64,000 bases of DNA from a virus. Under the pieces are notes generated by a model that worked only from the letters and a program-made list of their open reading frames with translations, was not told the DNA's origin and did not search any database. A program made the position numbers and the translations under genes. Shown here piece by piece: positions 30,568 to 50,797 of the stretch. Every line of letters starts with the position of its first letter. The first letter of the stretch is position 1. Location: the IMG/VR virus record IMGVR_UViG_3300032093_000041, positions 1 to 64,000 of that record. One strand, 5' to 3'.

Positions 30568-32925
30568 ATGCACTTCAGCAACTTTACTGAAAGTCGTGAC
30601 TTTACTGAAACTAACTACAAGTCACTTTCAGGTCAAATAAATGTAAACGAGGCTAAGGGCGTTGTTGAGTGCTTCGTTGCCGCTTTGGGAAACAAGGACA
30701 GTGTCGGCGACATTTGTCTACCAGGATGTTTTACCGAAAGCCTTAAGCGACGGAAGCCTCGTGTCGTATGGGGACATAACTGGAATGAGCCAATCGGCAA
30801 GGTTCTTGAAATATATGAGGTCGGGCCAAACGACCCGCGCCTCCCTCAGAAGATGAAGCAGAGGGGTGTTGGCGGCCTATTTGCCAAAGTGCAGTTTAAT
30901 CTTGGTGCAGAAAAAGGCAAAGAAGCATTTGCCAACGTAGCTTTTTTTGGTCTTGAGCAAGAGTGGTCAATAGGCTACAAAACCCTTGACGCAGTATATG
31001 ACAATGGCCAGCAGGCAAACCTTCTAAAAGAAGTAGAACTCTATGAGGTGTCTCCAGTACTCCACGGAGCAAACCAGCTAACTGCAACGCTGTCGATTAA
31101 GTCTGAGAACCAGAAGGATAATTATTCAGAAAAAGGTTCAAAATTAAAGGACCCCAGTGGTGGACTGACTGCTGCTGGTCGAGCACACTTTAAGCGCACG
31201 GAAGGTGCAAACCTGAAACCAGGAGTAAAAGGCCCAGCCAACACTCCTGAGAAGATGAGACGCAAAGGTTCGTTCCTGACGAGATTCTTTACAAACCCTT
31301 CTGGCCCAATGAAAGACGACAAAGGCAAGCCAACGAGACTGGCTCTATCTGCGGCAGCATGGGGTGAGCCTGTGCCGCAAGATAGGTCTGACGCCGCTGC
31401 TCTTGCAGCAAAGGGTCGTCGCCTTCTGGAAAGATACGAAAACTCGAAAGAAAAATCGCTTGACGCCGATGTTGATTCAAAAAACCATGCGTTGATTTAC
31501 GCACCACAGGCCGCAGGAATGTCAAATCCATCTTCCGGGAGAATGGGCGGACTTGCACGAGGCATAGGAATGCATTTCGGTGGCGAAGTCGTCATACGAA
31601 GCGCCGACGAAAACATGGTGGTATTCGACCTCGCTAAAGACGGAGCAACAGAAACCCTTAGGGCCAGTTACCACACCCCCAATGAGGTGGACTTCATGTT
31701 TGGCCCAGCAACCAAAGTGCGTCAAGAGGTTGTATACATTCCCGTTGACGGGTCAATGGGTAGCAGGGTGTCTGGCATAGATTTGCCATCAAAGCCGCAT
31801 GGCTGTGGTTGTGGAGGCTCCTGCGGGGGCGCAAAATCAGAATGCCAATGTGGTGGTTCTTGTGGCGGCTCTTGCTCGACAAATCAGATGAAATCATGGA
31901 ACGACTTTAAGTCTGATAATCCTGGCGTGCACTTGTTTATCAAGACAGCGGATATGGACATGTATCAAGCCGCTCAGGAAATAGGGTTTCATCACGGGTT
32001 TGATGTTGAGCTTCTGTCCGACGGCTTTGCTGTGCCAAACATTGACTGGTATGGCGAGGGCGCATCAGATGCACTTGTCACGGCAATGGATGGGATTGCA
32101 GAAAAGTTTGCTTTTGGCAGGAGTGCTAGGTCAACAGCAAAAAGAGCAAGAAAACTTGTAAAACCTTCTGTGTTTGACGGAGATGGTGACGGTTTCATGA
32201 CCGGCCGAGACGGTAGGGACAATATTCCATACAAGCCAAGAATGCCAAGGACTGACGAGCCAATCGAGATACCTGAAGAAATCCCGGTCCCAGAACCAAC
32301 TCGTATCCCTAAGCCAAATCCAGACAGAACGCCTTCTAGGCCAGCGCCGGCCCCAGCACCCTCTGTTCCTCAACCGCAGCGTCCTGCAGTCCCTGCTGGT
32401 AGACGTGACATGATGCCACGAATGCCGCGTACCGATGAGCCAATCGAGATTCCGGAAGAGATACCAGTACCAGAGCCAACTCGTATTCCTAAACCAAATC
32501 CGGACAGAACTCCATCTAGACCGACTCCAGCACCAGCCCCATCGGTTCCGCAGCCACAGCGCCCTGCGGTCCCAGCAGGACAGCGTCGCAGAGAAGAAAT
32601 ACGTAAACAGATGATGGAGCTGCTCCGCCGCCAGTACATGGCTTCACGAGGCAAAGCAGACACGTATGCCGTCTATATGACTGTTTCGGAAAATCACGAC
32701 ATCAATATAAAAAGTGCACAAAATGTCAATAGTCGTGACATTGACTCGTTGCTGCTTGAGATGCCAGTTGAGTACATCTACGAATTCAAGTCACTTATTG
32801 ACCCCGTAGCGGACTATCATCGAATTAGTGTTGTCGCCGTGGACTCTGGTCTGAAAATATTCGAGGCTTCAAAGTTGACAGTGGCAGCACTGGACGCAAT
32901 GAGCAACGTCGTTAGAGGCTGGTAG
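30568..32925 (+). CDS. HK97-type prohead protease with long multidomain C-terminal extension
   Basis: DSVGD..LPG.F, WGHNW..PIG, WSIGY, LYEVSPV..GAN; then a DUF6321-like domain, a Cys/Gly cluster and a 60-aa-period repeat. Confidence 0.9.
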   Translation: MHFSNFTESRDFTETNYKSLSGQINVNEAKGVVECFVAALGNKDSVGDICLPGCFTESLKRRKPRVVWGHNWNEPIGKVLEIYEVGPNDPRLPQKMKQRGVGGLFAKVQFNLGAEKGKEAFANVAFFGLEQEWSIGYKTLDAVYDNGQQANLLKEVELYEVSPVLHGANQLTATLSIKSENQKDNYSEKGSKLKDPSGGLTAAGRAHFKRTEGANLKPGVKGPANTPEKMRRKGSFLTRFFTNPSGPMKDDKGKPTRLALSAAAWGEPVPQDRSDAAALAAKGRRLLERYENSKEKSLDADVDSKNHALIYAPQAAGMSNPSSGRMGGLARGIGMHFGGEVVIRSADENMVVFDLAKDGATETLRASYHTPNEVDFMFGPATKVRQEVVYIPVDGSMGSRVSGIDLPSKPHGCGCGGSCGGAKSECQCGGSCGGSCSTNQMKSWNDFKSDNPGVHLFIKTADMDMYQAAQEIGFHHGFDVELLSDGFAVPNIDWYGEGASDALVTAMDGIAEKFAFGRSARSTAKRARKLVKPSVFDGDGDGFMTGRDGRDNIPYKPRMPRTDEPIEIPEEIPVPEPTRIPKPNPDRTPSRPAPAPAPSVPQPQRPAVPAGRRDMMPRMPRTDEPIEIPEEIPVPEPTRIPKPNPDRTPSRPTPAPAPSVPQPQRPAVPAGQRRREEIRKQMMELLRRQYMASRGKADTYAVYMTVSENHDINIKSAQNVNSRDIDSLLLEMPVEYIYEFKSLIDPVADYHRISVVAVDSGLKIFEASKLTVAALDAMSNVVRGW
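32236..32580 (+). repeat. Two in-frame 55-codon Pro-rich repeats (180-nt period)
   Basis: PRMPRTDEPIEIPEEIPVPEPTRIPKPNPDRTPSRP(A/T)PAPAPSVPQPQRPAVPAG at 32236-32400 and 32416-32580. Confidence 0.95.
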
Positions 32926-32927
32926 AA

Positions 32928-33131
32928 ATGTCTTCCAGATTCTCTCGTCCGAAGAAGAACGTCAGCCAGAATAAACCGCAAATAGGTTATTCTAAACCTG
33001 TAGACAATCAAAAAAAATCGTACAAGTATCACTGCATGGTCACGGGCGATAAACGCGCTCTTCCTTGTGGAGGATGCGTCAACCCTAAAGGTTGTTTATC
33101 AAATTCGATGCAGTACAAGGAGATGAAGTAA
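32928..33131 (+). CDS. Small Cys-rich basic protein
   Basis: YHC...PCGGC....GC; its stop overlaps the next start (TAATG). Confidence 0.6.
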   Translation: MSSRFSRPKKNVSQNKPQIGYSKPVDNQKKSYKYHCMVTGDKRALPCGGCVNPKGCLSNSMQYKEMK

Positions 33132-34582
33132 TGGCTGAGACACCAGTAGTAAAGCTTGACGCTGACGGTGAAGTGGTTCAGTGTGCCAAGGGCATGGACT
33201 CTGGCGAGTGTGGCTACACACCTGGAGCAAAGGTATGCGGTAAGTGCGGCGCTGTCGCACAGCAAATGAAGTCAGCTTCAATTGGAGGAATGATGGGCAT
33301 GGGTGGCGGACCTGCTGGCATGCCAGTCGCTACACCAATGCGCAAAAAGCCTCGCCCAATGGGTCCCCCAAGTCTTGACGACGAAGAGGACGATGACCTT
33401 GTTGGCATGGAAGGCATGGAAGAAGACGACATGATGGACGACGAAGACGACATGATGGATACCGAAGACGGCAAGATGATGGGTTACGACGACCTTGATG
33501 ATGATGAATCAGAAATGTACGTCCGCCGTGCGGCACCAAAGCGCAAGCGTAATGTTGTTGCCATGGAAGATGCTGACATGGAAGAAGACATGATGGAAGA
33601 AGAGGACGACATGGAAGACTCCATGATGGCCTCTCGCCAAAAGATGAGAAATCGTCGTCTTGGCAGCATGGGATACAAGTCATCCGAATTTGATAAAGAT
33701 GCATTCCTTTGCTCTTTCGACCGCAAGGTTTACCCAGGCGGTTCTCCTGTTTGTGATTCATGCCCTGGTGGATGTGTTCCAGAAGATGGAATGCCTTCTC
33801 TTCTTGAAGTTGAAGGAATGGCAGAAGACATGTTCAAGGGTAAAGTTCTTGACTCTGGCTACTCCGACGAAGCAGACCTATTTGTGGTTGACATTGAAAG
33901 AAAAGATGGCAAGCCAGTAGAGATTTTCTTCGATGGTTCATCTGGCGAAGTTATGGGATGGCACCTTTTGAACAGCGATTTAGTTGAAGTAAAGTCTGCG
34001 CTTGTAAATAAAGCAATGATTAGCTTTGGCGATGCTGCTGACATTGCGGTAAAGACAGTCACTGGTGACATCGTTGCTGTTGAACCAGACGTATTCGAAG
34101 GATACGACGTTTACGCAGTGGAGATTGACGGCATTAACGGCAAGTCCTACGACGTCTTCGTTTCACTCGATGGTGAAGTTCTTGGTTACGACGAGTACAC
34201 AATGGAAGAAGCAACAGAGATTGAAGCAGAAGCTGCCGAGATTGCTCTGAAGCGTGCTTACAGCGAGGACACTCGTAAGGCAATGTCAGACAAGGGTCAA
34301 GCCCTTCCTGATGGCTCTTACCCAATCGCCGACGAAGCTGACCTTCGCAACGCAATTCAGGCTTACGGCCGAGCAAAAGATAAAACAGCAGCCAAAGCGC
34401 ACATCATGAAGCGTGCAGTTGCTCTTGGTAAAGAAGACTTGATTCCAGTTTCATGGGTTTCAAAGGAAGACATTGAAAAAGCAAAGGCTGGAGAAAAGTC
34501 AGCAGATGACAATTTCTTATCAACGCTGATGGAATTTGAAATGCTCACCGTCGCCGAAGATACAGAAACAGAATCGGAGTAG
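33131..34582 (+). CDS. Acidic Cys-rich protein with two PepSY-like domains and a C-terminal ALPDGSYPI domain
   Basis: ATG 33131 with GGAG upstream; ISFGDAADIAVKTVTGDIVAVE...YAVEI...YDVFVSLDGEVL is PepSY-like, with a second copy upstream; D/E/M-rich tract. Confidence 0.7.
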   Translation: MAETPVVKLDADGEVVQCAKGMDSGECGYTPGAKVCGKCGAVAQQMKSASIGGMMGMGGGPAGMPVATPMRKKPRPMGPPSLDDEEDDDLVGMEGMEEDDMMDDEDDMMDTEDGKMMGYDDLDDDESEMYVRRAAPKRKRNVVAMEDADMEEDMMEEEDDMEDSMMASRQKMRNRRLGSMGYKSSEFDKDAFLCSFDRKVYPGGSPVCDSCPGGCVPEDGMPSLLEVEGMAEDMFKGKVLDSGYSDEADLFVVDIERKDGKPVEIFFDGSSGEVMGWHLLNSDLVEVKSALVNKAMISFGDAADIAVKTVTGDIVAVEPDVFEGYDVYAVEIDGINGKSYDVFVSLDGEVLGYDEYTMEEATEIEAEAAEIALKRAYSEDTRKAMSDKGQALPDGSYPIADEADLRNAIQAYGRAKDKTAAKAHIMKRAVALGKEDLIPVSWVSKEDIEKAKAGEKSADDNFLSTLMEFEMLTVAEDTETESE

Positions 34583-34856: not shown

Positions 34857-37800
34857 GTGCAGGATGATGTACTAAAAAACAAACTGCTAGGAATGGCATC
34901 TTCTAAAGATGCAAAACTAAGCACGGCTCCTTCTTCATCTTCTAAAAAAAATACAGACGATGAAGTCAAAAAAGAAGATAAACCAGAGAAGCCGTCTAAG
35001 GCTCAGTCTGAATACGAGCAGTTTTTAATTGACTGGGAGCCGTCAGACCCATTGCCGTTTTTCCCACCTGGAAAAATTATCAAGCTATGCCACCTAAGCA
35101 ATAACCCAATGGTTACTGGGTCGGACTATTACATAGACAACCCTGAAACAACTAAAAAAGCTTATAAACCTAATAAAAAAAGTATTGAAGAAGAGTTTTT
35201 AGAGGTTAAAAACCTTGGGCCAAAACTGAGTCGTGGTCTTTCTTCTCTTCTGGCAATGGTTGCTAGGTCTAGAGGGTTGTGGGTAGATGACAAAAATAAA
35301 TTGCGTTGTCCAGAAGGAACACCAGCTGCCAACCAATTTACAGACATAACCGGAAGTAACTGCTTTATACCTTCGCCGTCTGCCGCAGCGCAAAGTGGTG
35401 CTCGGGCAGCAAGAAGAGCATTTGGTACAGCAGAACAAATGGCAGCGGGCATGGGGCAACGTGTTGACCGCAGTCCATCTGGTCGCTCTAATGCTGCAGC
35501 AAGATATTCTCCTTCAGACTTGGCGATGCTTCAGGCAGGAATGGACATTGGCGGAAGAATGGCGATGCTAGGCGGAGCATCTCCAAGCTTGAGACAAACA
35601 CGAGGAACGGGAGGGGCATCCAAAACCGGTATGCCCATTTACTACATCGGCAAAAGAGAAGCGATAGCAAGAGGTAAGGACCTAACGCGCGCTGCGGCTG
35701 AATTAAAAAGACGATACTCGACAAGTGCGCAAGCTTCAGAGGCAATCGTTTACCCCCCTGGCTCACGGTTTGCAGGTCAACCAATTGGAGATGTTCTAAA
35801 TAAGGCTGACTTCATGAGGGCAATGGAAGAATTCATGCCCAATGTTGACCCCAATGAATTTTCTGAATACTTCGACAATGCAATTCCTGGTGTTTTGAGT
35901 CTTAACGACCGCAGAGCGTACGTGAGAATGTTCGAAGCTTTTTGGCAAGCAACAATTCAGCAGATGACCGAACAGCCAGACGCTTACAAAATCATCACAA
36001 CATTTGAGATGATGGATGACATTAACACTGCTGTAGAAATCCAGGTTGACCCGTTTTCCCCTAGTCCTCAAAGCGGAGGAAGACTGGCTGGTGTTGGTGC
36101 CATACAAATGGCTAGACAAGCTGGCCTTATGGCAGAAGGTGGCGCTCACGTAAGGTTCAAAATAAGCCCATTTGGCATGTGGCAGCAAGCCAATAATGTT
36201 GGGCGCAATATGGACAGCGACGGCTCTGGGTGGTGGGATAGCCGCGAGGGCAGGATGCATTACATCGCTGTTCATGAAACAGGCCACGTTGTCGACTTCT
36301 ATCAAAAACTGAAGGCTTTTGGATTAGACCCTAATGCTATGCAAAGATATACGGCTCCACAAAGAGTCGTTAACGTACCAGGTGCTGGTCCCTCTGTTCA
36401 GCAAGACAAATATAACGGCGCGTGGATAATTGACTGGTCACAAGTGTCGAATCCTATGAACAACCCGTTCATAGATGACATGATTCAAGCTGCTGCACGA
36501 CTAAAGGGCACCCAGTATACCGGTTCACGTTTTAGTGGCCGAAAAATAGACCTACAAGATGACATGAATGCTTTTTATGCAAACCTTGTTTGGGGCTTTC
36601 AAAACAACATAAACCACGACCCAAGCGACTTGCCACTTATGGCTGCGCTCGTTGGTGGCGCATATGCGACAGACTCCGGTGTAGAGACAAGAGCTGAGTA
36701 TTTTGTCTATAGGCGTTTATTTGGAGAACTAAGAGGAGCGCAATCAGCAACACCTGGTTTCAACCCTTTCAAAGACCAATTGCAGAGCGGTCCATTTGAC
36801 GCGACTCCAAGCGATATTGACTTGCGAACAACTTCCGCTAGAAAGAATCAGAGCAACAACCTGCTCACTCATTTCTTGGATGCATGGGCAACACAGGAAA
36901 GACAGAGAGCGTTAGAGCCTGGTGGAGCTTTGTATCAAATCATTCAGCAATTACCACCAGGGCAAGCCATACCGCAAAGCATTATTGAAGACTTTGAAAG
37001 AAACGTTGCCGCGGATACGTTGGCAAGACTGAACAAACTGGGGCAGGATGTTTTTGGTGTAGCCCCAAATCAATGGAACATCAGTGGTCGAATGGGGAAC
37101 ATCCAAGGCCCTTCGAGCAGACCACCATCACTTCATGCTCAAAGAGTAAGAACTGCTGTTCGCTCCAACAACATACGCACTACACGTGGCAAAAAGCAAC
37201 CCAGCGTCAGCTATGGAATAAGTGGTCGGATGGGAAACCCAGACCCAGTAAAACCACAGCGTCCTCGCGAACCAGACAACGGACCATTTACTGGAAAATT
37301 CCTGGATGTACTCCGTGGTTCATCTACGTGGAAACAATTTGCAAAAAAATACCGCGACCAAGAAGTTGTTTTCTTTGATTATGAGACCACCGGGTTTGGT
37401 GATGACGGCAACATGCCAGTGCAAATTGGCGCAGTAAAAATGAAGAATGGGAAAGTTGTTGAGCGTTTCAATGTCTTTGTAAACCCTGGAATACCGCTGG
37501 GTGATTGGGCCAAGAAGAATCTTAAAGACGACAAGGGGCAACCATTGACTGATGAATGGCTTGCTTCAAAAGCATCACTAAAAGAATCTCACGAAAAGCT
37601 ATTAGAGTTTTTTGGTGAAGATGCTTTACTGGGAGGTCAATACACTCCATTCGACCTAGAAGTTTTAGAACGAATACTTGGGCAGGTTGGCCTGGAGTAC
37701 AAACCGGCTGGGGTTATCGACTCAAAGGCAATGGCCGACGAAATACTGCCACGATGGACACCGGAAAACCCAGATGGTCCAACAATGATTGACCCAAAAA

Positions 37801-40028
37801 CTGGTGCTAAAAAAGGTTCTAATAGCCTTGGTCCTTTAGCAGAATACTTGGAAGTTGACCTGGGAGATGGTTGGCACACAGCCGATGCTGACTCTGAAGC
37901 GTCAGCAATGATTATTGAAAGAATGCTAGATAGAGCCGCATCAAGGCCAGACACACCAAGACGCATACTCGACGTTGACCAAGTGCCGCTAATTGTTCAG
38001 GAGCGCCGTGCCCAGTACGACAGAGACATGGCGGATTACTCAAAGAAAAAAGCCGAATACGACCAGTTAATCTCAGGACGCATGGGTGCTTCCCAGTTCG
38101 AGACAGCAAACGGTTCTGTATATACGCGCCAGCAAGATGGAACATTCCGCAGAAAAAAGAGCGCAATGCTCGGAACCACAATCGAAGACACCGACATAGA
38201 GTCAACATATGACAACACAGTATTTGTCGACGCTGATGATGCTTATTTGATTATGGCGCAGGGTCAAAGAGGCGCAATCATCGATAAAGATGGGGACCTA
38301 GTTGGTAGGCGATACGACGACACAGATTTGGACAGTGCAAAGTTCATGTCATTCCGCCGCGAGGGAGACGACTTCGATACTGCATATAAAAAAGCAGGTG
38401 GCACGGTTCAGGAAGAAAAAATACCAGCAGTTCGTATCAGCAGAGAACCGCAGAGCGGTTTAAAGCCAATTGAGTGGAACAACAAAGACAACAAATTTCA
38501 TGTCGGTAGCCCTGTTTCTTCGATAACCATGGAGACAAGCCAGCAAATATCTGGCAGGATGGGAAATCCTCAACGAGCATCTTTGGCAAAAACAGTGCAG
38601 GTTAAAGAGATGCTTGCCTCGACGAAAAGCTCTGTTGGTGCAGCAATGTCGGATGAGTACATTGATTCCTGGCCTGAAATTGAATCAAAGCTAAATCAAA
38701 GCGAAATCCTTGCTCGTAAGCCATTGACTAAATCAGAAGCCCGTCAAAGGACTAGAAGTGGAATTCAATGGTTTGCTAAAGCATTGCAAGATGCAATAGG
38801 TGGAGAAGGTAGAGACCCACAGCAAACAGTTATGTCGCCGTACTTAAGAGGCGTTGAGCTTGACTTCATGGCACACATAGCAGAAATGTCTGAAGATGAA
38901 CTTGAGCAAGAAGTAATTGATGCCATATCAGAGTTTCACGCCGGAATAGACCCTCGCCCGCATATTCAGGTATGGCAAGGGGACTTGACGCGCATTATTC
39001 AGAATGGCTACAAGACAACCCATCAGGTCGATAGTGACCACAGCAATAGTCCAATGAGAAAAGTCTATGAAGCAGAAATAGGCATACACCCCGACGTCCC
39101 TGACACAATGAGGCCAGCTTCTGGTTATATAGTTCATACAGATTGGCTCAACGCAGAAGACAAAGCTGCAGCAGATTTGGTACAGCTAGTCCCCGGCGCT
39201 GACCCTGAAGTCAATTTACCTGAATTCACTTCCCGAGGAAATGCGGAAACAATGCGCGGTCCTGTTCATGTATACGGCGGAGCTGAAGTTATATTACGCC
39301 CAGAAACTAGCGGAAGAACTTTTTATGGATATGGTGATTCACTGAGAACTAGGTTTACCCCTGCCAGCGTCGAGTCGGTCGACCCAGACGAAGTTGCTCG
39401 GTCGATTATTTTTGGTGGAACAACACCGGTAGAAAATATGCTCGATTTGCTTCATGGGAAATGGAAGGGTGACTATTCTTCTAGGCGCTATGAAGCAAAC
39501 AGCCCATCAAAAGAGTATTATGAAGCCCTCGTTGTTGGGGGATTTGATGCTGCCGACATAGAGGAAGTAATAATCCCTTCTCCAGAGGTAATCCCTGTTG
39601 AGGTGCTTTTTGAGTCAGAATCGTTGCCTGGGCAAAGAAACGAAGACAGAATTGCAAGGGGATACGACACGGACGCAACCATACCTTCTTTTTCAAAAAT
39701 GAAAGAATCTCAGTATTGGGTTGACAACGCCGGTGTAAGCGCCGAAGATGCCGAAATTATAGCTAGAGAAATAGCCAATAAAAAATTATTGTCCGTTGGT
39801 TCTAATGTTAATTTAGCCCGACTCCTTGCGGCAGAAAAAATCCGCAAACAACTTGAGGCTGCTGGAGCAAAAATGACAGTCCGCAACGATACGGGCGTGG
39901 ACTTCTTTAACCCAGACAGCTGGATTCAGGACATGAAAGACAAGTCAATGGAAGACGTTGCGGAGGCGCGTATGCGGCAAAGAATCATGTGGTCAATCAA
40001 AGACCAGCTAGCTAAGGCGACAGCATGA
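34857..40028 (+). CDS. Giant polyvalent protein 1: zincin (HETGH) | DEDDh exonuclease | unknown domain | DUF3626/ART-like
   Basis: HETGH 36273; FFDYETTG...FDL...HTADAD; RPASGY...YG...GDSL...YYEA; four exact ISGRMG motifs between domains. Confidence 0.8.
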   Translation: MQDDVLKNKLLGMASSKDAKLSTAPSSSSKKNTDDEVKKEDKPEKPSKAQSEYEQFLIDWEPSDPLPFFPPGKIIKLCHLSNNPMVTGSDYYIDNPETTKKAYKPNKKSIEEEFLEVKNLGPKLSRGLSSLLAMVARSRGLWVDDKNKLRCPEGTPAANQFTDITGSNCFIPSPSAAAQSGARAARRAFGTAEQMAAGMGQRVDRSPSGRSNAAARYSPSDLAMLQAGMDIGGRMAMLGGASPSLRQTRGTGGASKTGMPIYYIGKREAIARGKDLTRAAAELKRRYSTSAQASEAIVYPPGSRFAGQPIGDVLNKADFMRAMEEFMPNVDPNEFSEYFDNAIPGVLSLNDRRAYVRMFEAFWQATIQQMTEQPDAYKIITTFEMMDDINTAVEIQVDPFSPSPQSGGRLAGVGAIQMARQAGLMAEGGAHVRFKISPFGMWQQANNVGRNMDSDGSGWWDSREGRMHYIAVHETGHVVDFYQKLKAFGLDPNAMQRYTAPQRVVNVPGAGPSVQQDKYNGAWIIDWSQVSNPMNNPFIDDMIQAAARLKGTQYTGSRFSGRKIDLQDDMNAFYANLVWGFQNNINHDPSDLPLMAALVGGAYATDSGVETRAEYFVYRRLFGELRGAQSATPGFNPFKDQLQSGPFDATPSDIDLRTTSARKNQSNNLLTHFLDAWATQERQRALEPGGALYQIIQQLPPGQAIPQSIIEDFERNVAADTLARLNKLGQDVFGVAPNQWNISGRMGNIQGPSSRPPSLHAQRVRTAVRSNNIRTTRGKKQPSVSYGISGRMGNPDPVKPQRPREPDNGPFTGKFLDVLRGSSTWKQFAKKYRDQEVVFFDYETTGFGDDGNMPVQIGAVKMKNGKVVERFNVFVNPGIPLGDWAKKNLKDDKGQPLTDEWLASKASLKESHEKLLEFFGEDALLGGQYTPFDLEVLERILGQVGLEYKPAGVIDSKAMADEILPRWTPENPDGPTMIDPKTGAKKGSNSLGPLAEYLEVDLGDGWHTADADSEASAMIIERMLDRAASRPDTPRRILDVDQVPLIVQERRAQYDRDMADYSKKKAEYDQLISGRMGASQFETANGSVYTRQQDGTFRRKKSAMLGTTIEDTDIESTYDNTVFVDADDAYLIMAQGQRGAIIDKDGDLVGRRYDDTDLDSAKFMSFRREGDDFDTAYKKAGGTVQEEKIPAVRISREPQSGLKPIEWNNKDNKFHVGSPVSSITMETSQQISGRMGNPQRASLAKTVQVKEMLASTKSSVGAAMSDEYIDSWPEIESKLNQSEILARKPLTKSEARQRTRSGIQWFAKALQDAIGGEGRDPQQTVMSPYLRGVELDFMAHIAEMSEDELEQEVIDAISEFHAGIDPRPHIQVWQGDLTRIIQNGYKTTHQVDSDHSNSPMRKVYEAEIGIHPDVPDTMRPASGYIVHTDWLNAEDKAAADLVQLVPGADPEVNLPEFTSRGNAETMRGPVHVYGGAEVILRPETSGRTFYGYGDSLRTRFTPASVESVDPDEVARSIIFGGTTPVENMLDLLHGKWKGDYSSRRYEANSPSKEYYEALVVGGFDAADIEEVIIPSPEVIPVEVLFESESLPGQRNEDRIARGYDTDATIPSFSKMKESQYWVDNAGVSAEDAEIIAREIANKKLLSVGSNVNLARLLAAEKIRKQLEAAGAKMTVRNDTGVDFFNPDSWIQDMKDKSMEDVAEARMRQRIMWSIKDQLAKATA

Positions 40029-40348
40029 AAAAGGTATTGGTTGGGAAAACTGGAGACGGAGGCAAGCTCTACTTTGTCATAGGCGGCAAGACAGACGGCA
40101 TTTATCAAACCAGAAACAGAATGACTGAAATCAGTTTTTGGGATTTTGTTGACAAAAGACCAGATTTAGAAGAACTAACAATAACCAAAACACAGAAAAT
40201 GCTCTGGTCAAGAAATGTCTCAAATGCGGAGTGGGTTTCCCGCTTTATGCCACCGCAATGGAGGGTTAGCGAGGATGAAAACCCATACAACCTCAAAGTG
40301 AGTCGCGCATTAGATACAATAAGAACTACGACAGATTATCTGTTCTAG
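40025..40348 (+). CDS. Small protein coupled to giant 1 (candidate immunity)
   Basis: ATGA overlap with upstream stop; 107 aa. Confidence 0.6.
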   Translation: MKKVLVGKTGDGGKLYFVIGGKTDGIYQTRNRMTEISFWDFVDKRPDLEELTITKTQKMLWSRNVSNAEWVSRFMPPQWRVSEDENPYNLKVSRALDTIRTTTDYLF

Positions 40349-40374
40349 AATTAGCCCTGCCGCAAGGATACCTA

Positions 40375-41019
40375 GTGGATACTTTTGAGAAATTTCTCTC
40401 CAATAAAATTATAATTGTAGACGAAGAAAAGGCGGGCGGACCTGCCGGTGCTGTCATCCCCCAGGAAAGACTTACTGGCGACGTACTAAAAGGTCGGGGG
40501 CCCAGAAGGGGAAATCTCGAAAGACTCCTTAGATACTGGCGTCCAATAATGAAAAAACCGGGCGGCTTCAGGCGTTGTCGCGTAATCCTGGCAGACCATC
40601 CTGAGCTTTACCCACTGGAGAATATCTGCGCTTGGTTGCATCATGAAACAACGGGTCTATGGCCTAACGAGGGATGCCACCACCCCGGCATGAAGAACTG
40701 CAAAAAGAAGCTTAAAAAGGGCACCCAGGGCAGCCTTTGGACAGACAAAGACTTTGATGACAGGATGAGAAAACTTACATCTAGGGCGACCAGAAAGAGT
40801 CTACAATTTTCTGGTGTAGTAACCCCCGATGAGCCGTTTGCGCCAGTAATCACTAATGAAGATTACGACCATGCTTTTAAGGTTTTACAAGATTTCTTTG
40901 AAATGGAACCAGACTTTTGCAAAATGCTCATAGACGAATCCAGCTGGGAGCATACGCATGGTTTTGAAACTCCTAAAATTAAGATGGTCCCGGTAGATGA
41001 AGACAGTATCTCTTTCTGA
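40375..41019 (+). CDS. Head-associated hypothetical protein (Cys/His motif)
   Basis: LERLLRYW...PGGFRRC...CAWLHHETTGLWP pattern, which I recall from actinophage head-module proteins. Confidence 0.6.
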   Translation: MDTFEKFLSNKIIIVDEEKAGGPAGAVIPQERLTGDVLKGRGPRRGNLERLLRYWRPIMKKPGGFRRCRVILADHPELYPLENICAWLHHETTGLWPNEGCHHPGMKNCKKKLKKGTQGSLWTDKDFDDRMRKLTSRATRKSLQFSGVVTPDEPFAPVITNEDYDHAFKVLQDFFEMEPDFCKMLIDESSWEHTHGFETPKIKMVPVDEDSISF

Positions 41020-43057
41020 TTGCTGCAGCGAAAAAGGGCTGCAACCAATAATCCAGACTCGGCACGTGATGCCAGAGTTAGCGCTGACGCACGTCAACGC
41101 ATTTGAAGAGCCACTACCCAAAGACTCCAGTTATCGTGCTGCAGTTCTGTACAAGTGTGCAATGCAGCGCCGAGGCGGACGTCAGGGGCTAGAAGTAAAA
41201 GTTGGTTCAATCACGTCGACAAGCCCATTCTTACAAGGGGTTCAATCCGTTGGTTCAATGCTTGTCCCTGGAGACACTGCCCCACTGCGAAGCCCAGTAC
41301 GGTCAGGACTAGCCAGGCTTGTTACCCCCGGTGGTGTTCGTGGTGCCAACCCTTTTGCTTATGGCAAGCCAAACCGTGGCTACAGATGCCCAGAGGGTTA
41401 CCAGTTCGGCGGAAGATTCACTGACTCACGTTTTTCTACATGCGGCAAGCAGTTATTTGACCTTCCAGGCACGATTGGTGCCGTAATAGGAACAGCGCTT
41501 AGGCGGTCTGCAGATTCTTTAATTGACGGTTTTAAACCCACGACAAGTCGCGTGGGTGCGCTTTCTGTGTCCGGAGACATAATTCAAAGCAGGGCACCAC
41601 AGATACCTAGAGTATCTTCCCTCAATAAAAGAGTAAGAAACTCCAATACAGAATCAATCGTCTCTGCAATGTCGAGCGTTACGGAACCGTACAGAAGAAT
41701 GGTGCGTCGTGATGGATTTGTTCTTGAGCCAGTTGTTAGCAATGCTGTGCTACGAACGATTCCTGACAACAGAGACATGGAAGGTGCAACGTTCATACAG
41801 ACAGCTCTTGAGCCGAAGACGATTGGACAAGACGAACTAGGTCTACTTTCCAACACAGGAATTCAGAAGCTTGTCTATGTCCTTAATGGTGGCTCAACCC
41901 TTAATATTGAAAAAGCCAGGCCCCTGACTGTTGGTGAAAGACGCAAACTCGGTAAAACCGTGAATGTCGCAATGAGGGCCGACAACAGTTCCGACCCAGC
42001 AGCAAGATTGAGACTTGTAGCAGAAGAAATGGGCGACGCTGTTAGATATGAAGAGTCTTTCGAGCAAATATCAAACCCCAACGAAATAGTTGTGGCAAAG
42101 ATTCCTGGCTCGAACGTTAAAACACGTGTGAAAAGATGGGTTTATGAAGCGTTTTACGCCAAAAAACCAACTAAAAAAACGCCAGCAGAAGTAGATACAG
42201 AGGACGGCGACACGCTGTCCCCCGGCAAAAAAATTGACAATCTTTCTGGAGCCGTACGTCACTTAAACGCAGGCGGTTCTTTAGAAAATATATCTAGCGC
42301 AATTCGCGTAGAGGCTCTAAGACGTAGTCGACTTTACAAGACTGGGAAACTCAAAGAAGGAGTAATTCTTCACGAGCGTGCAGATGGACAAACTGTCTTT
42401 GAAATGAAACCGAAAAAAGACTTTGAGCATCTAGGTGCAGCATTTGCATCAGAAGTGCAAAGGTCTCTAGGTCTAATCGCGCCAAAAGTGAGGGTTGCTG
42501 GAAGCGGAAATAGGCGTCCGTATCTTATTGGGGAAGCACAGGATGCTGCCACCAAGGGCTCGCAATCACGTTCAGACGGTCTTAAAAACGTCGCTGCAGA
42601 GGATTTGGTTGGACTGGCTATTGCTGACTGGCTTACCGATACATACGGTAGGTCTCCGGCGAATATTGCTCCGGTGAACATTAGCGGCTCAATGCGTGCT
42701 GTCTCATCAATAAATCCGATGGCTGGTTTGCCGACATCAAATGCTCGAAATGTAAGAGTCAGAATGGATTCTTCGATTGATGATTTTTTTGGCCAGCAGT
42801 TGCGCGAAATGTATCGCAAAAATTTCGAGCGCTTGCAGGCTGAGCAACGCAAAAAAGCTTTACAAATCATTGCTGCATATATAGAGCGTGCGCAAGATAT
42901 AGACTTTGCGGACATGAGAAGGCGTCTAACTTTAGACGGTTCTTTATCTCAGGCAGAAAAACGACACCTTGGAATTATCGAAAACCTTTTTAATAGGCGG
43001 CTTGAAACGCTTCGCACGTCGCGGGCAGCATTTATAAAAGTTCTCGGTCTAAAGTAA
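40997..43057 (+). CDS. 686-aa protein with RCP leader module and C-terminal degenerate HipA/PI3-4K-like kinase fold
   Basis: LEVK...YRCPEGYQFGGRFTD; LGLIAPKV...IADWLTDTYGRSPANI. Confidence 0.65.
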   Translation: MKTVSLSDCCSEKGLQPIIQTRHVMPELALTHVNAFEEPLPKDSSYRAAVLYKCAMQRRGGRQGLEVKVGSITSTSPFLQGVQSVGSMLVPGDTAPLRSPVRSGLARLVTPGGVRGANPFAYGKPNRGYRCPEGYQFGGRFTDSRFSTCGKQLFDLPGTIGAVIGTALRRSADSLIDGFKPTTSRVGALSVSGDIIQSRAPQIPRVSSLNKRVRNSNTESIVSAMSSVTEPYRRMVRRDGFVLEPVVSNAVLRTIPDNRDMEGATFIQTALEPKTIGQDELGLLSNTGIQKLVYVLNGGSTLNIEKARPLTVGERRKLGKTVNVAMRADNSSDPAARLRLVAEEMGDAVRYEESFEQISNPNEIVVAKIPGSNVKTRVKRWVYEAFYAKKPTKKTPAEVDTEDGDTLSPGKKIDNLSGAVRHLNAGGSLENISSAIRVEALRRSRLYKTGKLKEGVILHERADGQTVFEMKPKKDFEHLGAAFASEVQRSLGLIAPKVRVAGSGNRRPYLIGEAQDAATKGSQSRSDGLKNVAAEDLVGLAIADWLTDTYGRSPANIAPVNISGSMRAVSSINPMAGLPTSNARNVRVRMDSSIDDFFGQQLREMYRKNFERLQAEQRKKALQIIAAYIERAQDIDFADMRRRLTLDGSLSQAEKRHLGIIENLFNRRLETLRTSRAAFIKVLGLK

Positions 43058-43058
43058 A

Positions 43059-46000
43059 ATGAAACAAATTTCTCTTGTTAAAGACAAAATAGACGGGTCC
43101 CCTTTTGCTGTCCTCCTGATAGACAAAGGTTCTGTCACGGCATATGGCTCTCCTGGACAAGGAGAAGACTGGGCAGAATGGGTCAATAGTCAAGAAACAT
43201 CCGTAGAAGAAATACAAGATGTTCTAGATGTTCGCCTGGTTGCTGAACCATCAATTCCAGCAAAAAAATTTAACGAGAGCTCAATCAGTAGCTACTTAGG
43301 TCAAGAAGCAATGGACTTGCTAATGGCAGAGTTAAATAAAAAAGCTCTGCTAGAAATAGTTCAAGTTAAGTCAGAAAGTCAGCCGCAGGAGTATGACGAG
43401 GAAGACCTTCCGGACTACACGCCCATATCGGTGTGGCCGTTGTCTGAAATATCGCTGGCTTCCATAGATGTTGCATACAAATCTCAGCTTGCTGATTACA
43501 AGGCTAAAGCTTTCAACGCCGACAGAAACAGGCGGGCGCTTGCTCTTGAGGTGAAGTGGGCTAGAGCTATTTGGGATAACGACCGTCAAGGATGGCGTTG
43601 CCCACCAGAGACCACCAATGGCGGCCAGTTCACTAACAGAATGGGTCTTGGTTGCACCACTGGTCTTGTTCGACGTCTTGGTCAATCTCTGATGAGCATT
43701 GAAGACAGAAATAAACTTCAGATGCAGCTCCCAGGACTAGAAGACCCGAGAGGTTTCCTGTATCGCTCTGGTTCATTAATTGACCAGCGAGCAGAAACTA
43801 GACAGCGTGAATTTGCTGACCGACAAGAACGTCGCGCAGCACGCCGCGTTCGCAGTCTTATCGAAAAAGAAGGAAAAAAAGAACAAGAGCGTTTAGCTAA
43901 AGAAAACAAACGCAAACATCGTTCTGGGGAATCTCTAAGAGATATTTATTCAAGTTTTACGCCAGACGCAAGCAGAGTGTCTCGCGCACGTGCTGCTGGA
44001 GCAGTAAAGCTTCGTCGGTTTGCATCCAACGTAGAGCAAGAATCACTCAGGAATATTGGGGCGAGTCAACAGCGCAGAGACCGCAGGGTTAGGGACGTAT
44101 CAGAGGAAAAGCTAGACAGTAAGAAGATACGCAAGCTCCGCGATTTTGGTGGAAAAATACCTGGTTCAAAACTTGGAGGCTATGTCCAGTACGACAAGAT
44201 GATGGCAGACGACAAAGGGCAGGCTGTCGACATCAATGGCGAACTCATGGTCCCTCGTGTTCTTGTGGACATGGATGAAATGCACTCTAATCCATACTAC
44301 GGAAGAGAATTTTTAACAGATGATTCCGGTAATCAAGTAGAAAATTTCCATGCCAATCATAAGTGGGTCACCGTAGAAGAAGTACTCGCTATGGCGTCTA
44401 TCAATCGCGCGACCAAACCAGCACATGACTGGATTGAAATGCGTAAGGGGCGAGGTTTCCCTGGTGATGAAACCATTGAGTTTGTTGAAGCAAAAGAACT
44501 TCGTAAAATTCAAAAAGACAATGGATTTATTGGAGTTCGGTCAAGCTTAAAAGACAAAGGCAAAGGCCGTTTTGACGGAGACACTCGCGGCAAAGGCAAG
44601 AAGAAGACAAAACCAGCGCAAGGCGGCTCCATCGGCGACATGGAATTTGAGCCAGATGAATTGCCGCCAACCGTCGCAAAAAGGTTTGGAGATGCATGGC
44701 GCGATAGCAGAAAACGTCTTGGTTCGTGGATTGCAAACCTTGACCCCTTGCTAGATGAAGACCAGAAAACACGTCGCGAAAAGCGTCGCCGCCAAAAAGC
44801 TTCAAAATCTAAAGACTCGAGCGCCATAAACGGTGCAAACATTCTTCAGTCTCTATTCTCTGATATTGATGACCCGATAGAGGCAACCGTGCGATACGCA
44901 CAACTGTCCAACTTTAAAGAACCAGAGTTCAGAGACTGGTACGACTACACCACAAACAACAAACCAGTACCTGAGCGTCGCGAAGATTGGAACTTTGGAT
45001 TCAATAGTGTAATTGGCGAACCGACACCTCATTTTGCTCGGCTCAAAAACCTTATAGACGGAATAGTGTCAGAACACGCCGCTGGCGTACTGATTACAGC
45101 GGACGACTCAGAAGACCCCGATATAACCAAATTTATTTTTCAAGATTACGACTTCAGTACAAAGTTTAGGTCTGGTCAAATTGGGAATGTATACAACGTG
45201 CGTGTTGTAACAAGGACTGATGGCGTTGAAGAAGTACGACAAATAGCTGTAGATTCAATAAGTCTAAATCGCTGGACGGATAATCCATTAGACGAGAACA
45301 GACAACCAATTACGGCAACTGATGCAGGTCTATATATGCTGTGGTCAAACACAACGTTTTTAGATGTTCCGGAAGATGTCGTAGAGAGAGCAGCTAGTGG
45401 GCAAATGCCTACGTTTGAGCTCGTAGAGCTTGCTGCGAAACAATGGGTGGACCCAGGGTATCACGGTGCTCAGCCGCCTGCTTTCTATTATGACCAGGCC
45501 ACTAAATGGCACGAACATTACAGGGTTATCGGCTTCAACCAAAAGGGTGCTCCGCTATATATCAAGGGTGCAGGCGGGAGGGGTCGGACCGGGTCAACGT
45601 CGGTACATATCCCTGGCACATCAAATTCTGTCGTAGACACGAGAACCGGTGGTCTTATTTCTGGCCGCATGAGCCAAGAAACAATAATCACCCCAGAAGG
45701 TCAGCGAGCCCTAGACGACCCTAATGTGAATATTTGGACTGGTGAACAAAACTTTCTGGTGCTTGACGGAGGCCCTGCACCCGGGCGCGGACGCCGGCGT
45801 CGTCGCACATCTGGTCCTACGCCCCAGTCTCCTGGTGTTGTATCGCGCTTCCTTGATGGAGAAGGTCGCCAACTAAGTAGAGAACGCCGCAGCGCAAGAA
45901 GGATGCTAAAGGGGCGTACACCAAAAGACACACGCCCGATACGTCAACGCATAGAAGCTGCGCTGTATGAGAGGTCACGTCGTCGGTCAGGCGAGCCAAG

Positions 46001-49000
46001 ACCCATTTCAATGCAGGCACCGGATATCGACATAAACGTTTACTCCGACGAGCTTCGCAGAATGGAAGAAAGCGGAGAGTCGATAGAGGCACGCAATGCA
46101 CTTCCACCGATAGATGGCGTATATGACTGGTTGCTCCCAGATAACTTTTCCGCTGGCAATGATTGGTGGGGCTCTGGCGTAAACCAGCAACGAATAGACA
46201 CCCTTAATGCTTCATTACACGAGCTTGGAGGTTCATTCTTCCCGCTCGTATCGCAACGCGATATTGACCGTTTGCCGCAGCTTGCTGAAGAAGGCAGAAA
46301 GTGGCTAGAAGACATAAATGACCCTGACAAGGATTCTGCTCCTGGAGAAGTATCCAACTGGGGTTTTGCCGAATGGAAAGAGTATGGAGGATATACATAC
46401 GTTTACGATTCGAGGAACGAAACAAAACCGCCCATTGCAATCGTAAACAACGAATCCGGCACAACGCACATGATTGGCAAAGATGGCCAACACCTTATGA
46501 CTCTGGTCACGAGAGTGGCTCCATCTGGAGAAACTGTATTTTTGCCCGTTGGCTCAAACTCGACGCATAAACGGCTCGACAACATCACTGAGCAGCCGGG
46601 ATTCTTGCAGACAGTTTTAGGTAAATTCCGTAGACGCCAACAGCAAGACATAAACCCAGAGCAGATTATCCCTGGTCTTCGTTCCAGAGAACGAGCATTC
46701 ACTCGTGGCGACAATACAATTGAGGACGTTCGTTCCCAGTTTGAGAATGGGACACCTTCAGATACGTTCCCATACTCATTTGCAACAAAGCAACGTACTG
46801 GCGCATTAGCTCCAACTTCTCTTACAACTCTTCAGGAGGAGTCACTGCTAGAAGAAGCAGATAAACTGCAGGTACAAATCGCCGATGACTTTAGACGTCA
46901 ATTGGGTCTAAACAAAAAAGACCAACTGACCGAAGAGGCAATCAAAGACCTCATTGATGACCTCCAACGTCGTGGCAAAAAACGCGAAGCTGGAATTGCA
47001 ACAAACAACCTTCACGACCTTGCCGTACTTGATGACATGTTGCAGTCACGAGACGTTATGCATGTCAACAACCTAAAGCCGGGCCGCAGGCATCTACTTT
47101 TAGGCACAAGCGTAAACCCAGTACCAGACTCCGAGCAAAAGCGCCGCCGCGCAATGACGCCAGACATGATTCACGTTTCCAGTGATTCAAGAGCAATGGA
47201 TTCAAGGCTTTCAGACAGAGGGGACACAGACCCAGCAACGTCTAAGAGAACATATCCGAGTGGAGCAATAAATCTCTACGAACCGTCTGAAGAGTCGTTT
47301 ACGCCTTCATCGCCAAGGCCGCAAACTGGACCAGCCCTCATTCCGGGGGAGGGCGATGCTACTGGAACAATTGTTTATCAAAACGGAATGTATTTTGATA
47401 CGTCAACAAACCGTTACGTAGAAGACTTAAGTGGTCTCGATTTTGAATCAGCAGACTTTGTCCATGTTCCTGTTCCTTTAGAGGAATCTTCTACAAACGG
47501 AATCGACGATTTAGGCGGGGAGTTTCCTAAAATTCTTCTTACTTCCGGACCTGGTGCTCCTAGTCGACAATCGGCAGTCATAGCTCCTGGAGTTTCAAGC
47601 ACGAATCCAGAAGCCGCTCTTACTTCTAGGCCAGATGCTGTTAATGCCGTCGTAGCAAAACCGAATTCATTTACCGAAGCATTTTACTTAGTAAGAAATA
47701 GATGGCGTCAGATTGCCGCAACAAAACCTGCCGACCAGACTGAGCCATACCGAAAGCTGACAGACAAGATTGGCGCAGACCCAGCTCCGACTGCATTTAT
47801 GCTGTCGTCGCTGTTGAGCCCGCTTCTTTCTAAGGCAGACGGTCTGGAATCAGAAGAAGGCGTGTCTCTATATTCAGCACCAATTCATTCCCCTACGCTT
47901 TCCGGTAGCGACAATGCCGCAGGAATATTGAGGGCAATAAGAAACGCATCAAGAAAATCACCAACAGAAAACGGTCTTTTCTCTGATTACTTACCTGGTT
48001 CATCAGGCGACATTGTCTCGTATTCTGGTATGGCAGTTGGGCCCCACGCACCCCGTGGGCAGACGGTACTTGACGCAATAGGCGTATTTGCTGACTTGCC
48101 GTTTGAGACTGTTTATATACCGAGCACCCAACCAATAGCTCCAAATGTGGCGCAGCACAATAGTTTAGCGAATGCAAACCGAACATTACTTGATACAAAA
48201 ATATTCCGGTCGCTGAACGCTGCACTCCAGTTGGATTACGCGTCGCAAAAAATGCGTCAGCTGCTGGATAGCGGCACACCACAAGAAATAACTGGCTGGA
48301 ACGACACATGGGGTAAAAGATTCGGCGGAAGATTTGACATAACACAAGCAGATATTGAGTCTGTCGAGCAGCTACGTGATGCAGCGTGGCAGCGTGCGGC
48401 GGAAGACCTTTCGTCCGTTGCTAAAAATGCTGGTGACCGCAGAAACGACTTCCTTAACCAGTGGCGTAATCGCTCCCAATTCCGCCCAGAGAATCGCGAG
48501 ATAGACGCTGAGCTCAGCATTGCCACCGAATACATCACTAATGGTGTTATTGCTGAGCAAGCGGAGTACCTACTCACTAAGCACATACTCACCAATCCAC
48601 GAATAATGCAAAGCCTTGCTCAGTCCGAGCTTGTATCTTTAGAGTCGCGTTCAAGAGAAGCGAACAAGAGAATGGAGAGGCTCGAAGCTATACGTAGTGC
48701 GCAAACCGCACTAGGTAGGCGCTCTATGCCTGGGTATTCACCAGAAGACATTGACCCCATTGAATTATTGCCAGTACTTGATAGACACGGTGATGGTGTT
48801 GTTACAAACGCATCACTGCGCGACCCAGCAGAAATAGTCGAAATATTGTCTGACCACAAATCTCTTGGATTTGGAGCTCCTTTAGACATAGACCCAGCAA
48901 CTGGAGAATATGTTCCATCCATTTTAACCGACGACCAAATGGAAGCATTGGCGCTAATAGATTACTCAATCCGTAGAAATCTAAGCCAAGGAAGTCCAGC

Positions 49001-50411: not shown

Positions 50412-50797
50412 AATCTATAGATAAATCATCTTTAACGTCAGACGAATTTGCAATGTATTCACAGAGCAAGTTAAAACTAAAACGAGCCGTGGAGGACATG
50501 TATCAACTTGCTGAGTTGCCTCCATTTGCTTTTGACAAGACAGGAAAAACTCCAGAACTTGCTGGGGAATTCATACAAGACATAAATGAACACCTTCGAG
50601 ACATTGATGAAGAAGATTTCATCACAGATAGATATAGGCCACTTGTAGACATAAAAACCAAATATGAAAACGAACTCAATGAAGCTCGCAAAATACGCGA
50701 CAGTGCGCCCAAGCTTGGCCTAGCGTTAAAAAAATGGTTTGAAGACAACAATCTACGAATGGACGAAGCGATAGCGTATTTCTACGGCGTGGATTAA
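50408..50797 (+). CDS. Small protein coupled to giant 2 (candidate immunity)
   Basis: ATG 50408 forms an ATGA overlap with stop 50409-50411. Confidence 0.6.
   Translation: MKSIDKSSLTSDEFAMYSQSKLKLKRAVEDMYQLAELPPFAFDKTGKTPELAGEFIQDINEHLRDIDEEDFITDRYRPLVDIKTKYENELNEARKIRDSAPKLGLALKKWFEDNNLRMDEAIAYFYGVD

Follow-up and report, generated by a model that had tools for sequence, protein, structure and literature searches.

LEVK and a two-cysteine module as a candidate N-terminal signature of packaged cargo proteins in a clade of uncultivated phages

The LEVK-RCP signature and its three carriers

The window analysed here is the first 64 kb (64,000 nucleotides) of IMG/VR virus record IMGVR_UViG_3300032093_000041, which has a length of 105,678 bp, is estimated to be about 71% complete and comes from an uncultivated phage of about 140 kb. 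Three long proteins encoded in the window, giant 1, a 686-amino-acid protein (686-aa protein) and giant 2, carry near their N-termini the tetrapeptide LEVK followed by a 20-residue element with two cysteines, RCP-x8-FT-x6-C, which is referred to below as the RCP module. An earlier note on this DNA had described the combination as a leader of fixed spacing in three otherwise unrelated proteins and had proposed that it is a capsid-targeting or ejection signal exposed by proteolysis at LEVK.

A six-frame scan of the window returned exactly three matches to RCP-x8-FT-x6-C, all of them in-frame in long open reading frames (ORFs) of the + strand, while the mean expectation from residue-shuffled six-frame translations is 0.003. 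LEVK also occurs exactly three times in the six frames, at 35199, 41189 and 43545. Chance alone would yield about as many over the full window, yet all three copies precede modules, by 31, 61 and 13 residues, respectively. The scan confirmed the shared leader and its fixed spacing as the earlier note had described them. The three carriers and their signature elements, with the leader types A, B and C that are defined below, are as follows.

34857-40028, + strand: giant 1, 1723 amino acids, long ORF
35199-35210, + strand: LEVK of giant 1, residues 115-118, followed by the x-L-G start of the type A leader; putative prohead-protease site
35304-35363, + strand: RCP module of giant 1, residues 150-169
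40997-43057, + strand: 686-aa protein, long ORF
41189-41200, + strand: LEVK of the 686-aa protein, residues 65-68; the type B leader comes next and starts with V-G
41384-41443, + strand: RCP module of the 686-aa protein, residues 130-149
43059-50411, + strand: giant 2, 2450 amino acids, long ORF
43545-43556, + strand: LEVK of giant 2, residues 163-166, followed by the type C leader with W-D at its end
43596-43655, + strand: RCP module of giant 2, residues 180-199

Pairwise BLASTP comparisons of the three proteins aligned the module region alone (E = 0.014, 2e-4 and 0.06), and profile-profile comparisons of the three family alignments matched approximately 30-46 columns around the module with E values from 1e-5 to 9e-7. 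By both measures, the carriers are otherwise unrelated within this genome. Across the clade, this description did not hold, since single-linkage clustering of the cargo parts joined the family of giant 1 to that of the 686-aa protein by way of domains shared in chains; the word "unrelated" is therefore true within the genome and not of the clade as a whole.

A reading of all module-bearing units distinguished three types of leader between the Lys and the module, and these match the three genes of the window. In type A (giant 1), the Lys is followed by x-L-G, a short helix-like stretch and V-D-x-x-G-K, and the module lies 29-49 residues after the Lys. Type B (686-aa protein) continues with V-G and a long conserved stretch rich in Pro, Gly, Ser and Arg, placing the module 57-83 residues after the Lys. 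In type C (giant 2), the leader is short and closes with W-D, and the module lies 13-16 residues after the Lys. The regular expressions that were used to find the units fixed the Lys and the residues downstream only. The residues before the Lys agree across the three types, with Leu, Ile, Val, Phe or Tyr at P4, Glu (or Asp, Gln, Ser) at P3, and Val (or Phe, Tyr) at P2.

Written strictly as [LIVFYM][EDQ][VFIY]K, the motif is 14.5-fold enriched in the 85 amino acids upstream of modules (6.1 per 1000 residues) over the rest of the same proteins (0.42 per 1000 residues), an enrichment that overstates the number of independent events because the sequences are related. The strict motif is present in 42% of 352 distinct units, compared to an expected 3.4%. 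Conservation starts at the motif, and the part upstream of it ranges from 14-17 residues in compact proteins to about 250 residues and cannot be aligned between subgroups. At the level of sequence, the module-bearing units are each headed by a conserved hydrophobic-E-V-K motif, of which LEVK is an example.

Besides its N-terminal extension, LEVK, type A leader and RCP module, giant 1 has an HExxH motif, an exonuclease and four ISGRM linkers. The exonuclease is RNase_T/DnaQ-like and spans residues 838-1018 (37368-37910). The HExxH motif at 36273-36287 is of the zincin type, with no match to a Pfam peptidase family at E ≤ 0.01. In the 686-aa protein, the N-terminal 200 residues are predicted to be disordered and hold LEVK, the type B leader and the module, and residues 205-686 (41609-43057) were well modelled by AlphaFold2. 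A Foldseek search with this C-terminal part identified weak matches to atypical kinases (CotH, CtkA, PI3K/Vps34 and HipT) with a probability of about 1 and a template modeling (TM) score of just 0.2-0.47. From the model, it is possible that the C-terminal part is a packaged kinase. Giant 2 contains LEVK, the type C leader, the module and a single ISGRM (45657-45671), and has a second conserved V-K at 43359-43370.

Distribution and properties of the module

Relatives of the 686-aa protein number 146 in IMG/VR contigs, down to 36% identity, and make up at least 691 clusters in a set of 5.8 billion proteins. All 120 of the homologues listed are metagenomic, are unnamed or annotated as "hypothetical", and are without precomputed Pfam domains. 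Across related loci, the module is kept in every homologue of giant 1 and the 686-aa protein and in the giant-2 homologues of closer lineages. A degenerate DNA pattern of the module matches more than 117 IMG/VR contigs, among which are hybrids of the module types and an ORF that holds two modules. Whole-genome profile scans found three modules in this record and in each of three complete relatives, two in a fourth, and none elsewhere in these genomes. The module-bearing phages are a large uncultivated clade with genomes of about 135-170 kb; one relative with terminal repeats is 137,811 bp in length.

A module profile of 46 positions was built from 117 modules and compared with 1.84 billion representative proteins, identifying 556 at E ≤ 1e-3 and 248 at E ≤ 1e-10. 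Lengths, positions and module counts were taken from the best 150 of the 556 matches. These proteins range from 144 to 4629 amino acids, and the ones examined are all metagenomic. The N-terminal placement that had been noted for three proteins was borne out across hundreds of diverged proteins, as 86 of the 89 proteins with 1000 amino acids or more have their first module no later than residue 300. Two to four modules are held by 26 of the 150 representatives. In two database proteins, all three leader types occur within one chain: first a type A unit, then a type B unit carrying the 686-aa body, and last a type C unit, which is how the genes of the window are ordered. An x-x-K stands at the head of every unit in these fusions as well. 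Four internal modules are present in one protein. A related-locus search with two multi-module proteins found none.

The N-terminal regions gave no match in Pfam-A or PHROGs, from which the module is absent, and the ESM Atlas gave no usable match. Among 185,579 species genomes, the 686-aa family was identified on two metagenome-assembled genome contigs alone, each from a different phylum. The nearest cultured relatives by capsid protein are Gordonia and Brevibacterium myophages (48% identity), which encode enzymes between the portal and capsid genes, but without the module.

In 60 homologues of the 686-aa family, C131, P132, E133, G134, F141, T142 and C149 are invariant, as are parts of the leader. 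In the module profile, C14 and C32 are the sole invariant Cys or His. Despite the invariant columns, the AlphaFold2 model of the 686-aa protein has a predicted local distance difference test (pLDDT) score below 50 over residues 59-157. The type A unit, calculated with 37 diverse sequences, reached a pLDDT of 55-69 and was modelled as a short helix, three two-residue strands and the following helix. Invariance combined with a low pLDDT points to a module that is predicted to become ordered on a partner.

The carriers are otherwise poor in cysteine. Outside modules, Cys makes up 0.13% of residues in the loci and 0.11% in the representatives, compared to 0.51% in the other long ORFs of the same loci. 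No Cys beyond the two of the module is present in 44 of 144 complete ORFs and in 59 of 150 representatives, and the proteins concerned are up to about 2000 residues long. Since the pair is kept against this depletion, it is considered to be under specific selection. Two candidate identities were discarded: that of a zinc ribbon or knuckle, as there are two conserved ligands and not four, and that of a homolog of the four-Cys ribbon encoded nearby (hhalign E = 0.37).

The head module, its K sites and its repeated linkers

The genes for the three proteins belong to a head module that runs on the + strand from 28 kb onward in the order portal, S78 protease, scaffold-like protein, giants and then the HK97-like capsid gene. 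The other features of the region are listed here.

26612-27916, divergent orientation: terminase large subunit
28189-30477, + strand: portal with a fused C-terminal SPP1 gp7/Mu F-like head-morphogenesis domain; start of the head module
30568-32925, + strand: prohead protease fusion, 785 amino acids, with Peptidase_S78 (residues 30-175), DUF6321 and a long C-terminal extension
33092-34582, + strand: scaffold-like protein, 496 amino acids, acidic, Met-rich and Cys-rich, with an N-terminal four-Cys ribbon
33260-33271, + strand: Q-Q-M-K of the scaffold-like protein
40375-41019: 214-amino-acid protein (214-aa protein) with conserved Cys/His, always just before the 686-aa gene and overlapping its start
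37080-38561, 45657-45671, 51613-51627, 53002-53016 and 56612-63508: ISGRM copies
54827-64000, continuing to 66610 of the record: 3927-amino-acid protein (3927-aa protein) with Nudix, DnaJ, zeta-toxin-like kinase and GNAT domains (Pfam)
66936-68279 of the record: major capsid protein, a clear HK97 gp5 homologue

Two small genes lie between giant 1 and the 686-aa gene. Downstream of giant 2 are a small gene, the gene for a protein of 1267 amino acids (1267-aa protein) and that for the 3927-aa protein, which crosses the end of the window. Overlaps occur between the small gene at 40025-40348 and the stop of giant 1 (4 nt) and between the small gene at 50396-50797 and the end of giant 2 (16 nt). 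The capsid protein matches solved HK97 chains with an E value of about 1e-50. Encoded between the portal and S78 protease on one side and the capsid gene on the other, the three proteins therefore occupy a position at which genes for head-internal proteins are found. They do not have the layout of MuF toxins, in which cargo is fused behind an N-terminal Mu F-like domain: giant 1, the 686-aa protein and giant 2 lack this domain, which is fused to the portal instead; it is possible that the portal is a docking partner of the module.

The S78 protease fusion is a candidate enzyme for the K site. It also contains a metallothionein-like run with eight Cys at 31804-31875 and a Pro-rich segment of approximately 60 residues that is duplicated (32100-32600). 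The Cys cluster of the protease was considered as a partner of the module and discarded, as it is not conserved and the homologous ORFs of most relatives have no Cys at all. Two constant neighbours are rich in cysteine: the scaffold-like protein, with eight Cys, and the 214-aa protein, with four to seven. The 214-aa protein has a weak match to a PHROG of unknown function and nothing more, and may possibly serve as a metal-binding partner or chaperone.

The scaffold-like gene lies directly upstream of giant 1 in every relative where the region could be inspected. Its product combines a C-x8-C-x8-C-x2-C ribbon (33182-33247), a low-complexity body rich in Met, Asp and Glu, four more Cys and a PepSY domain. 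A Lys is found exactly eight residues past the last ribbon Cys in 54 of 59 relatives. The pattern at this site is Val or Ile at P4, Gln or Glu at P3, Met or Val at P2 and then Lys, where conservation ends.

A comparable site is present in the capsid protein. All six capsid proteins of the clade have an invariant x-V-K-D-V/I-Y, with the putative cut between Lys and Asp, 29 residues before a conserved R-V-R-D-L-F. In HK97, proteolysis of the capsid protein takes place at K103/S104, within a segment that is unstructured (PMC10275583). In a HMMER alignment, the site of the clade is four residues from the position aligned with K103/S104 and falls at the boundary between the scaffold and N-arm. The capsid protein of the cultured Gordonia relative has I-E-R-K followed by Asp at the same place. 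A site resembling hydrophobic-E/Q-V/M-K is common to the three leader types, the scaffold-like protein and the scaffold boundary of the capsid protein, and it is consistent with a site of the S78 protease with Lys at P1.

The 1267-aa and 3927-aa proteins have a different tag of 36 residues in common (BLASTP E = 6e-14), located at 50998-51105 and 55712-55819, respectively, with a D-x-D-x-D-G-like core. Both copies are preceded by x-x-x-K-A-L (50935-50952 and 55622-55639), with the putative cut after the Lys, and by an Arg-rich stretch. This is another class of cargo tag on the same plan.

About 17 copies of ISGRM(G/S) are found at domain boundaries of four giants, one of them directly before the J domain of the 3927-aa protein, and the protease fusion has an S-G-R-M-G variant at 31534-31548. 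In sister lineages, the same proteins have linkers of their own: G-I/V-T-G-A-M, L-R-S-S-G, G-L-R-S, G-L-A-S-S-T and L-S-S-G. The ISGRM-type linkers look like a fast-evolving second signal for processing or docking. As the linkers vary by lineage while the K motif and the capsid site are constant, two separate signals are suggested.

A cargo signature, its alternatives and its precedents

With these features in mind, LEVK-RCP may be an N-terminal signature of cargo that is packaged in the head and delivered to the host, with a protease cut followed by a module that is retained as a docking or exit tag. This reading of the sequences is held tentatively, at somewhat less than an even chance. The S78 protease would cut inside the prohead after the Lys of hydrophobic-E/D/Q-V/F-K and remove the N-terminal extension, which varies between 14 and about 250 residues; the scaffold domain of the capsid protein would likewise be removed at its own x-V-K site. 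Each processed unit would then start with leader A, B or C and end 13-80 residues later in the 20-residue module. The retained module, having no stable fold alone, would bind a shared partner inside the head, for which the portal with its Mu F-like domain and the co-encoded Cys-rich proteins are candidates, possibly through a metal or disulfide bridge. Docked in this way, each unit would be positioned or kept for loading and later exit, and the multi-enzyme giants would travel inside the head and reach the host with it. The presence of one module per fused unit, and of four in a single protein, suggests that every mature piece requires the module, which would then serve for more than entry of the precursor.

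The proposal of a targeting or ejection signal exposed at LEVK gains from the location in the head module, the N-terminal position and the recurrence of the K motif. Several points weigh against it. In about one third of the 686-aa family, E-V-K is replaced by other K-containing or K-less strings, and the relatedness of the sequences behind the enrichment counts on the same side. The P3 residue of the capsid site is Gly, Asn or Gln and not Glu. A tblastn search of 50,697 phage records with the 686-aa protein and its LEVK-to-module stretch found no cultured carrier and no match at all, even at E = 10. Two Cys are too few for a classical four-ligand zinc site on their own. The lineage-specific linkers may be alternative or additional cut sites, and the HExxH motif of giant 1 could supply a second protease.

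In one alternative, the Lys is not a cut site at all. The stretch from hydrophobic-E-V-K to the second Cys would be one partner-binding element, the extension would stay in place, and processing would occur only at linkers such as ISGRM. The linkers do lie at domain boundaries (17 or more ISGRM-type motifs), occur in the protease fusion as well and have a counterpart in every lineage, and there are conserved residues right after the Lys, as expected within a motif. It is difficult to see, under this alternative, why the same four residues should head three non-homologous leaders at distances of 13-16, 29-49 and 57-83 residues from the module, why they recur in the capsid and scaffold-like proteins, both of which are without the module, or why the part upstream should vary from 14 to 250 residues. 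Moreover, it is the linkers that change between lineages, while the K motif and capsid site remain constant. An arrangement without a cut at the Lys is therefore regarded as unlikely, although not negligibly so.

The module might instead act after delivery, either by binding a host factor or by sensing redox state, as an element that is oxidised inside the particle and becomes reduced on reaching the cytoplasm, with each effector unit in need of its own copy. This is appealing insofar as every unit of the fused polyproteins keeps a module where one tag would suffice for loading, the two invariant Cys stand in Cys-depleted proteins, and the region is disordered alone in the manner of a short linear motif. 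It is nevertheless judged to be rather improbable: no common host target is obvious for cargo as diverse as an exonuclease, a kinase-like protein and proteins of unknown function, and the different tag on two of the giants fits two classes of docking better than two host targets. The least probable of the alternatives weighed is that the module is a small structural element stapled by metal or disulfide, a degenerate zinc knuckle of a common N-terminal domain with no role in targeting. Its C-P-x-G and x-C-G strings do resemble halves of a zinc knuckle, and a four-Cys ribbon protein is encoded next door. Yet the hhalign comparison above detected no ribbon homology, two ligands are conserved, AlphaFold2 found no confident fold even with deep alignments, and neither the strictly N-terminal placement nor the link to the K motif would be explained.

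A further idea, which builds on the cargo reading, is that the module tethers each unit by metal or disulfide to the Cys-rich core proteins or the portal in the oxidised particle and releases it in the reducing cytoplasm. In this way, one element of 20 residues would control how about 10,000 effector residues are loaded and retained, and when they are released. This is a speculative extension with little probability assigned to it.

Several known systems provide some contrast. The capsid targeting sequence of T4 consists of approximately 10-19 residues upstream of a cut with Glu at P1, is removed by that cut, and is portable between unrelated cargo. As is proposed here, it is a short N-terminal signal beside a prohead-protease site, and its bearers are taken up into the head and later injected. 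The cleavage motif of the T4 protease gp21 is I/L-x-E, as cited in a paper on phage proteases and CBASS (PMC12991175). In the clade described here, the conserved element has two invariant Cys, lies 13-83 residues downstream of a putative Lys-P1 site and would be retained, and the part that would be removed is long and variable. With HK97, the clade shares a homologous capsid protein, a Peptidase_S78 protease and, if the putative site is used, a cut after Lys, at sites that are four residues apart in the alignment. HK97 is not known to package cargo proteins that bear sites of this kind, whereas here the same kind of site would be used on cargo also.

The polyvalent proteins of phages and conjugative elements are giant multi-domain effectors that are encoded with head genes and for which packaging, processing and joint delivery with the DNA are predicted, with processing by zincin-like peptidases proposed (Iyer et al. 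2017, PMC5512222). The carriers, rather than the module itself, resemble these in joining unrelated effector domains in single polypeptides that are associated with head genes: giant 1 has an RNase_T domain beside its HExxH motif, which matches no Pfam peptidase family, and the 3927-aa protein has Nudix, DnaJ, zeta toxin and GNAT domains. The word "cysteine" is absent from the text examined (PMC5512222), and with it any description of a two-Cys N-terminal module. For the propeptide-bearing ejection proteins of the giant phages phiKZ and SPN3US and for the Dar proteins of P1, many head-internal proteins are reported to be loaded via N-terminal regions and trimmed by the prohead protease (PMC5694885, PMC7411985, PMC10052503, PMC9024508 and PMC12810830). 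These systems differ from the present one in having Glu at P1 or no defined motif; they are not known to have a shared Cys module, and there is no sequence similarity. A comparison may also be made to encapsulins. Their cargo-loading peptides form a short, conserved and disordered terminus of diverse enzymes and dock inside a shell with the HK97 fold. Encapsulin peptides are located at the extreme terminus, have no Cys and are uncoupled from proteolysis, so that the likeness is one of analogy only.

An N-terminal signal with a protease site on packaged proteins is thus already known from T4, phiKZ/SPN3US and P1. What would be new, as far as can be judged from sequence, is a retained, partner-dependent two-Cys module past a Lys-P1 site, with three classes of leader and use in each unit of a polyprotein, in an HK97-type system. 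It would be a second example beside the T4 targeting sequence, differing in that the tag is retained and Cys-dependent, and would extend the Lys-P1 maturation cut of HK97 from the capsid protein to cargo. If true, the K site together with the two-Cys module would provide a sequence rule for packaged and injected effectors in uncultivated phages, covering more than 500 protein clusters that are all "hypothetical" at present. It would also offer a compact and portable tag for loading foreign proteins into HK97-type capsids. More generally, the signature bears on how proteins of up to 4629 amino acids are organized in the phage head and how they leave it.

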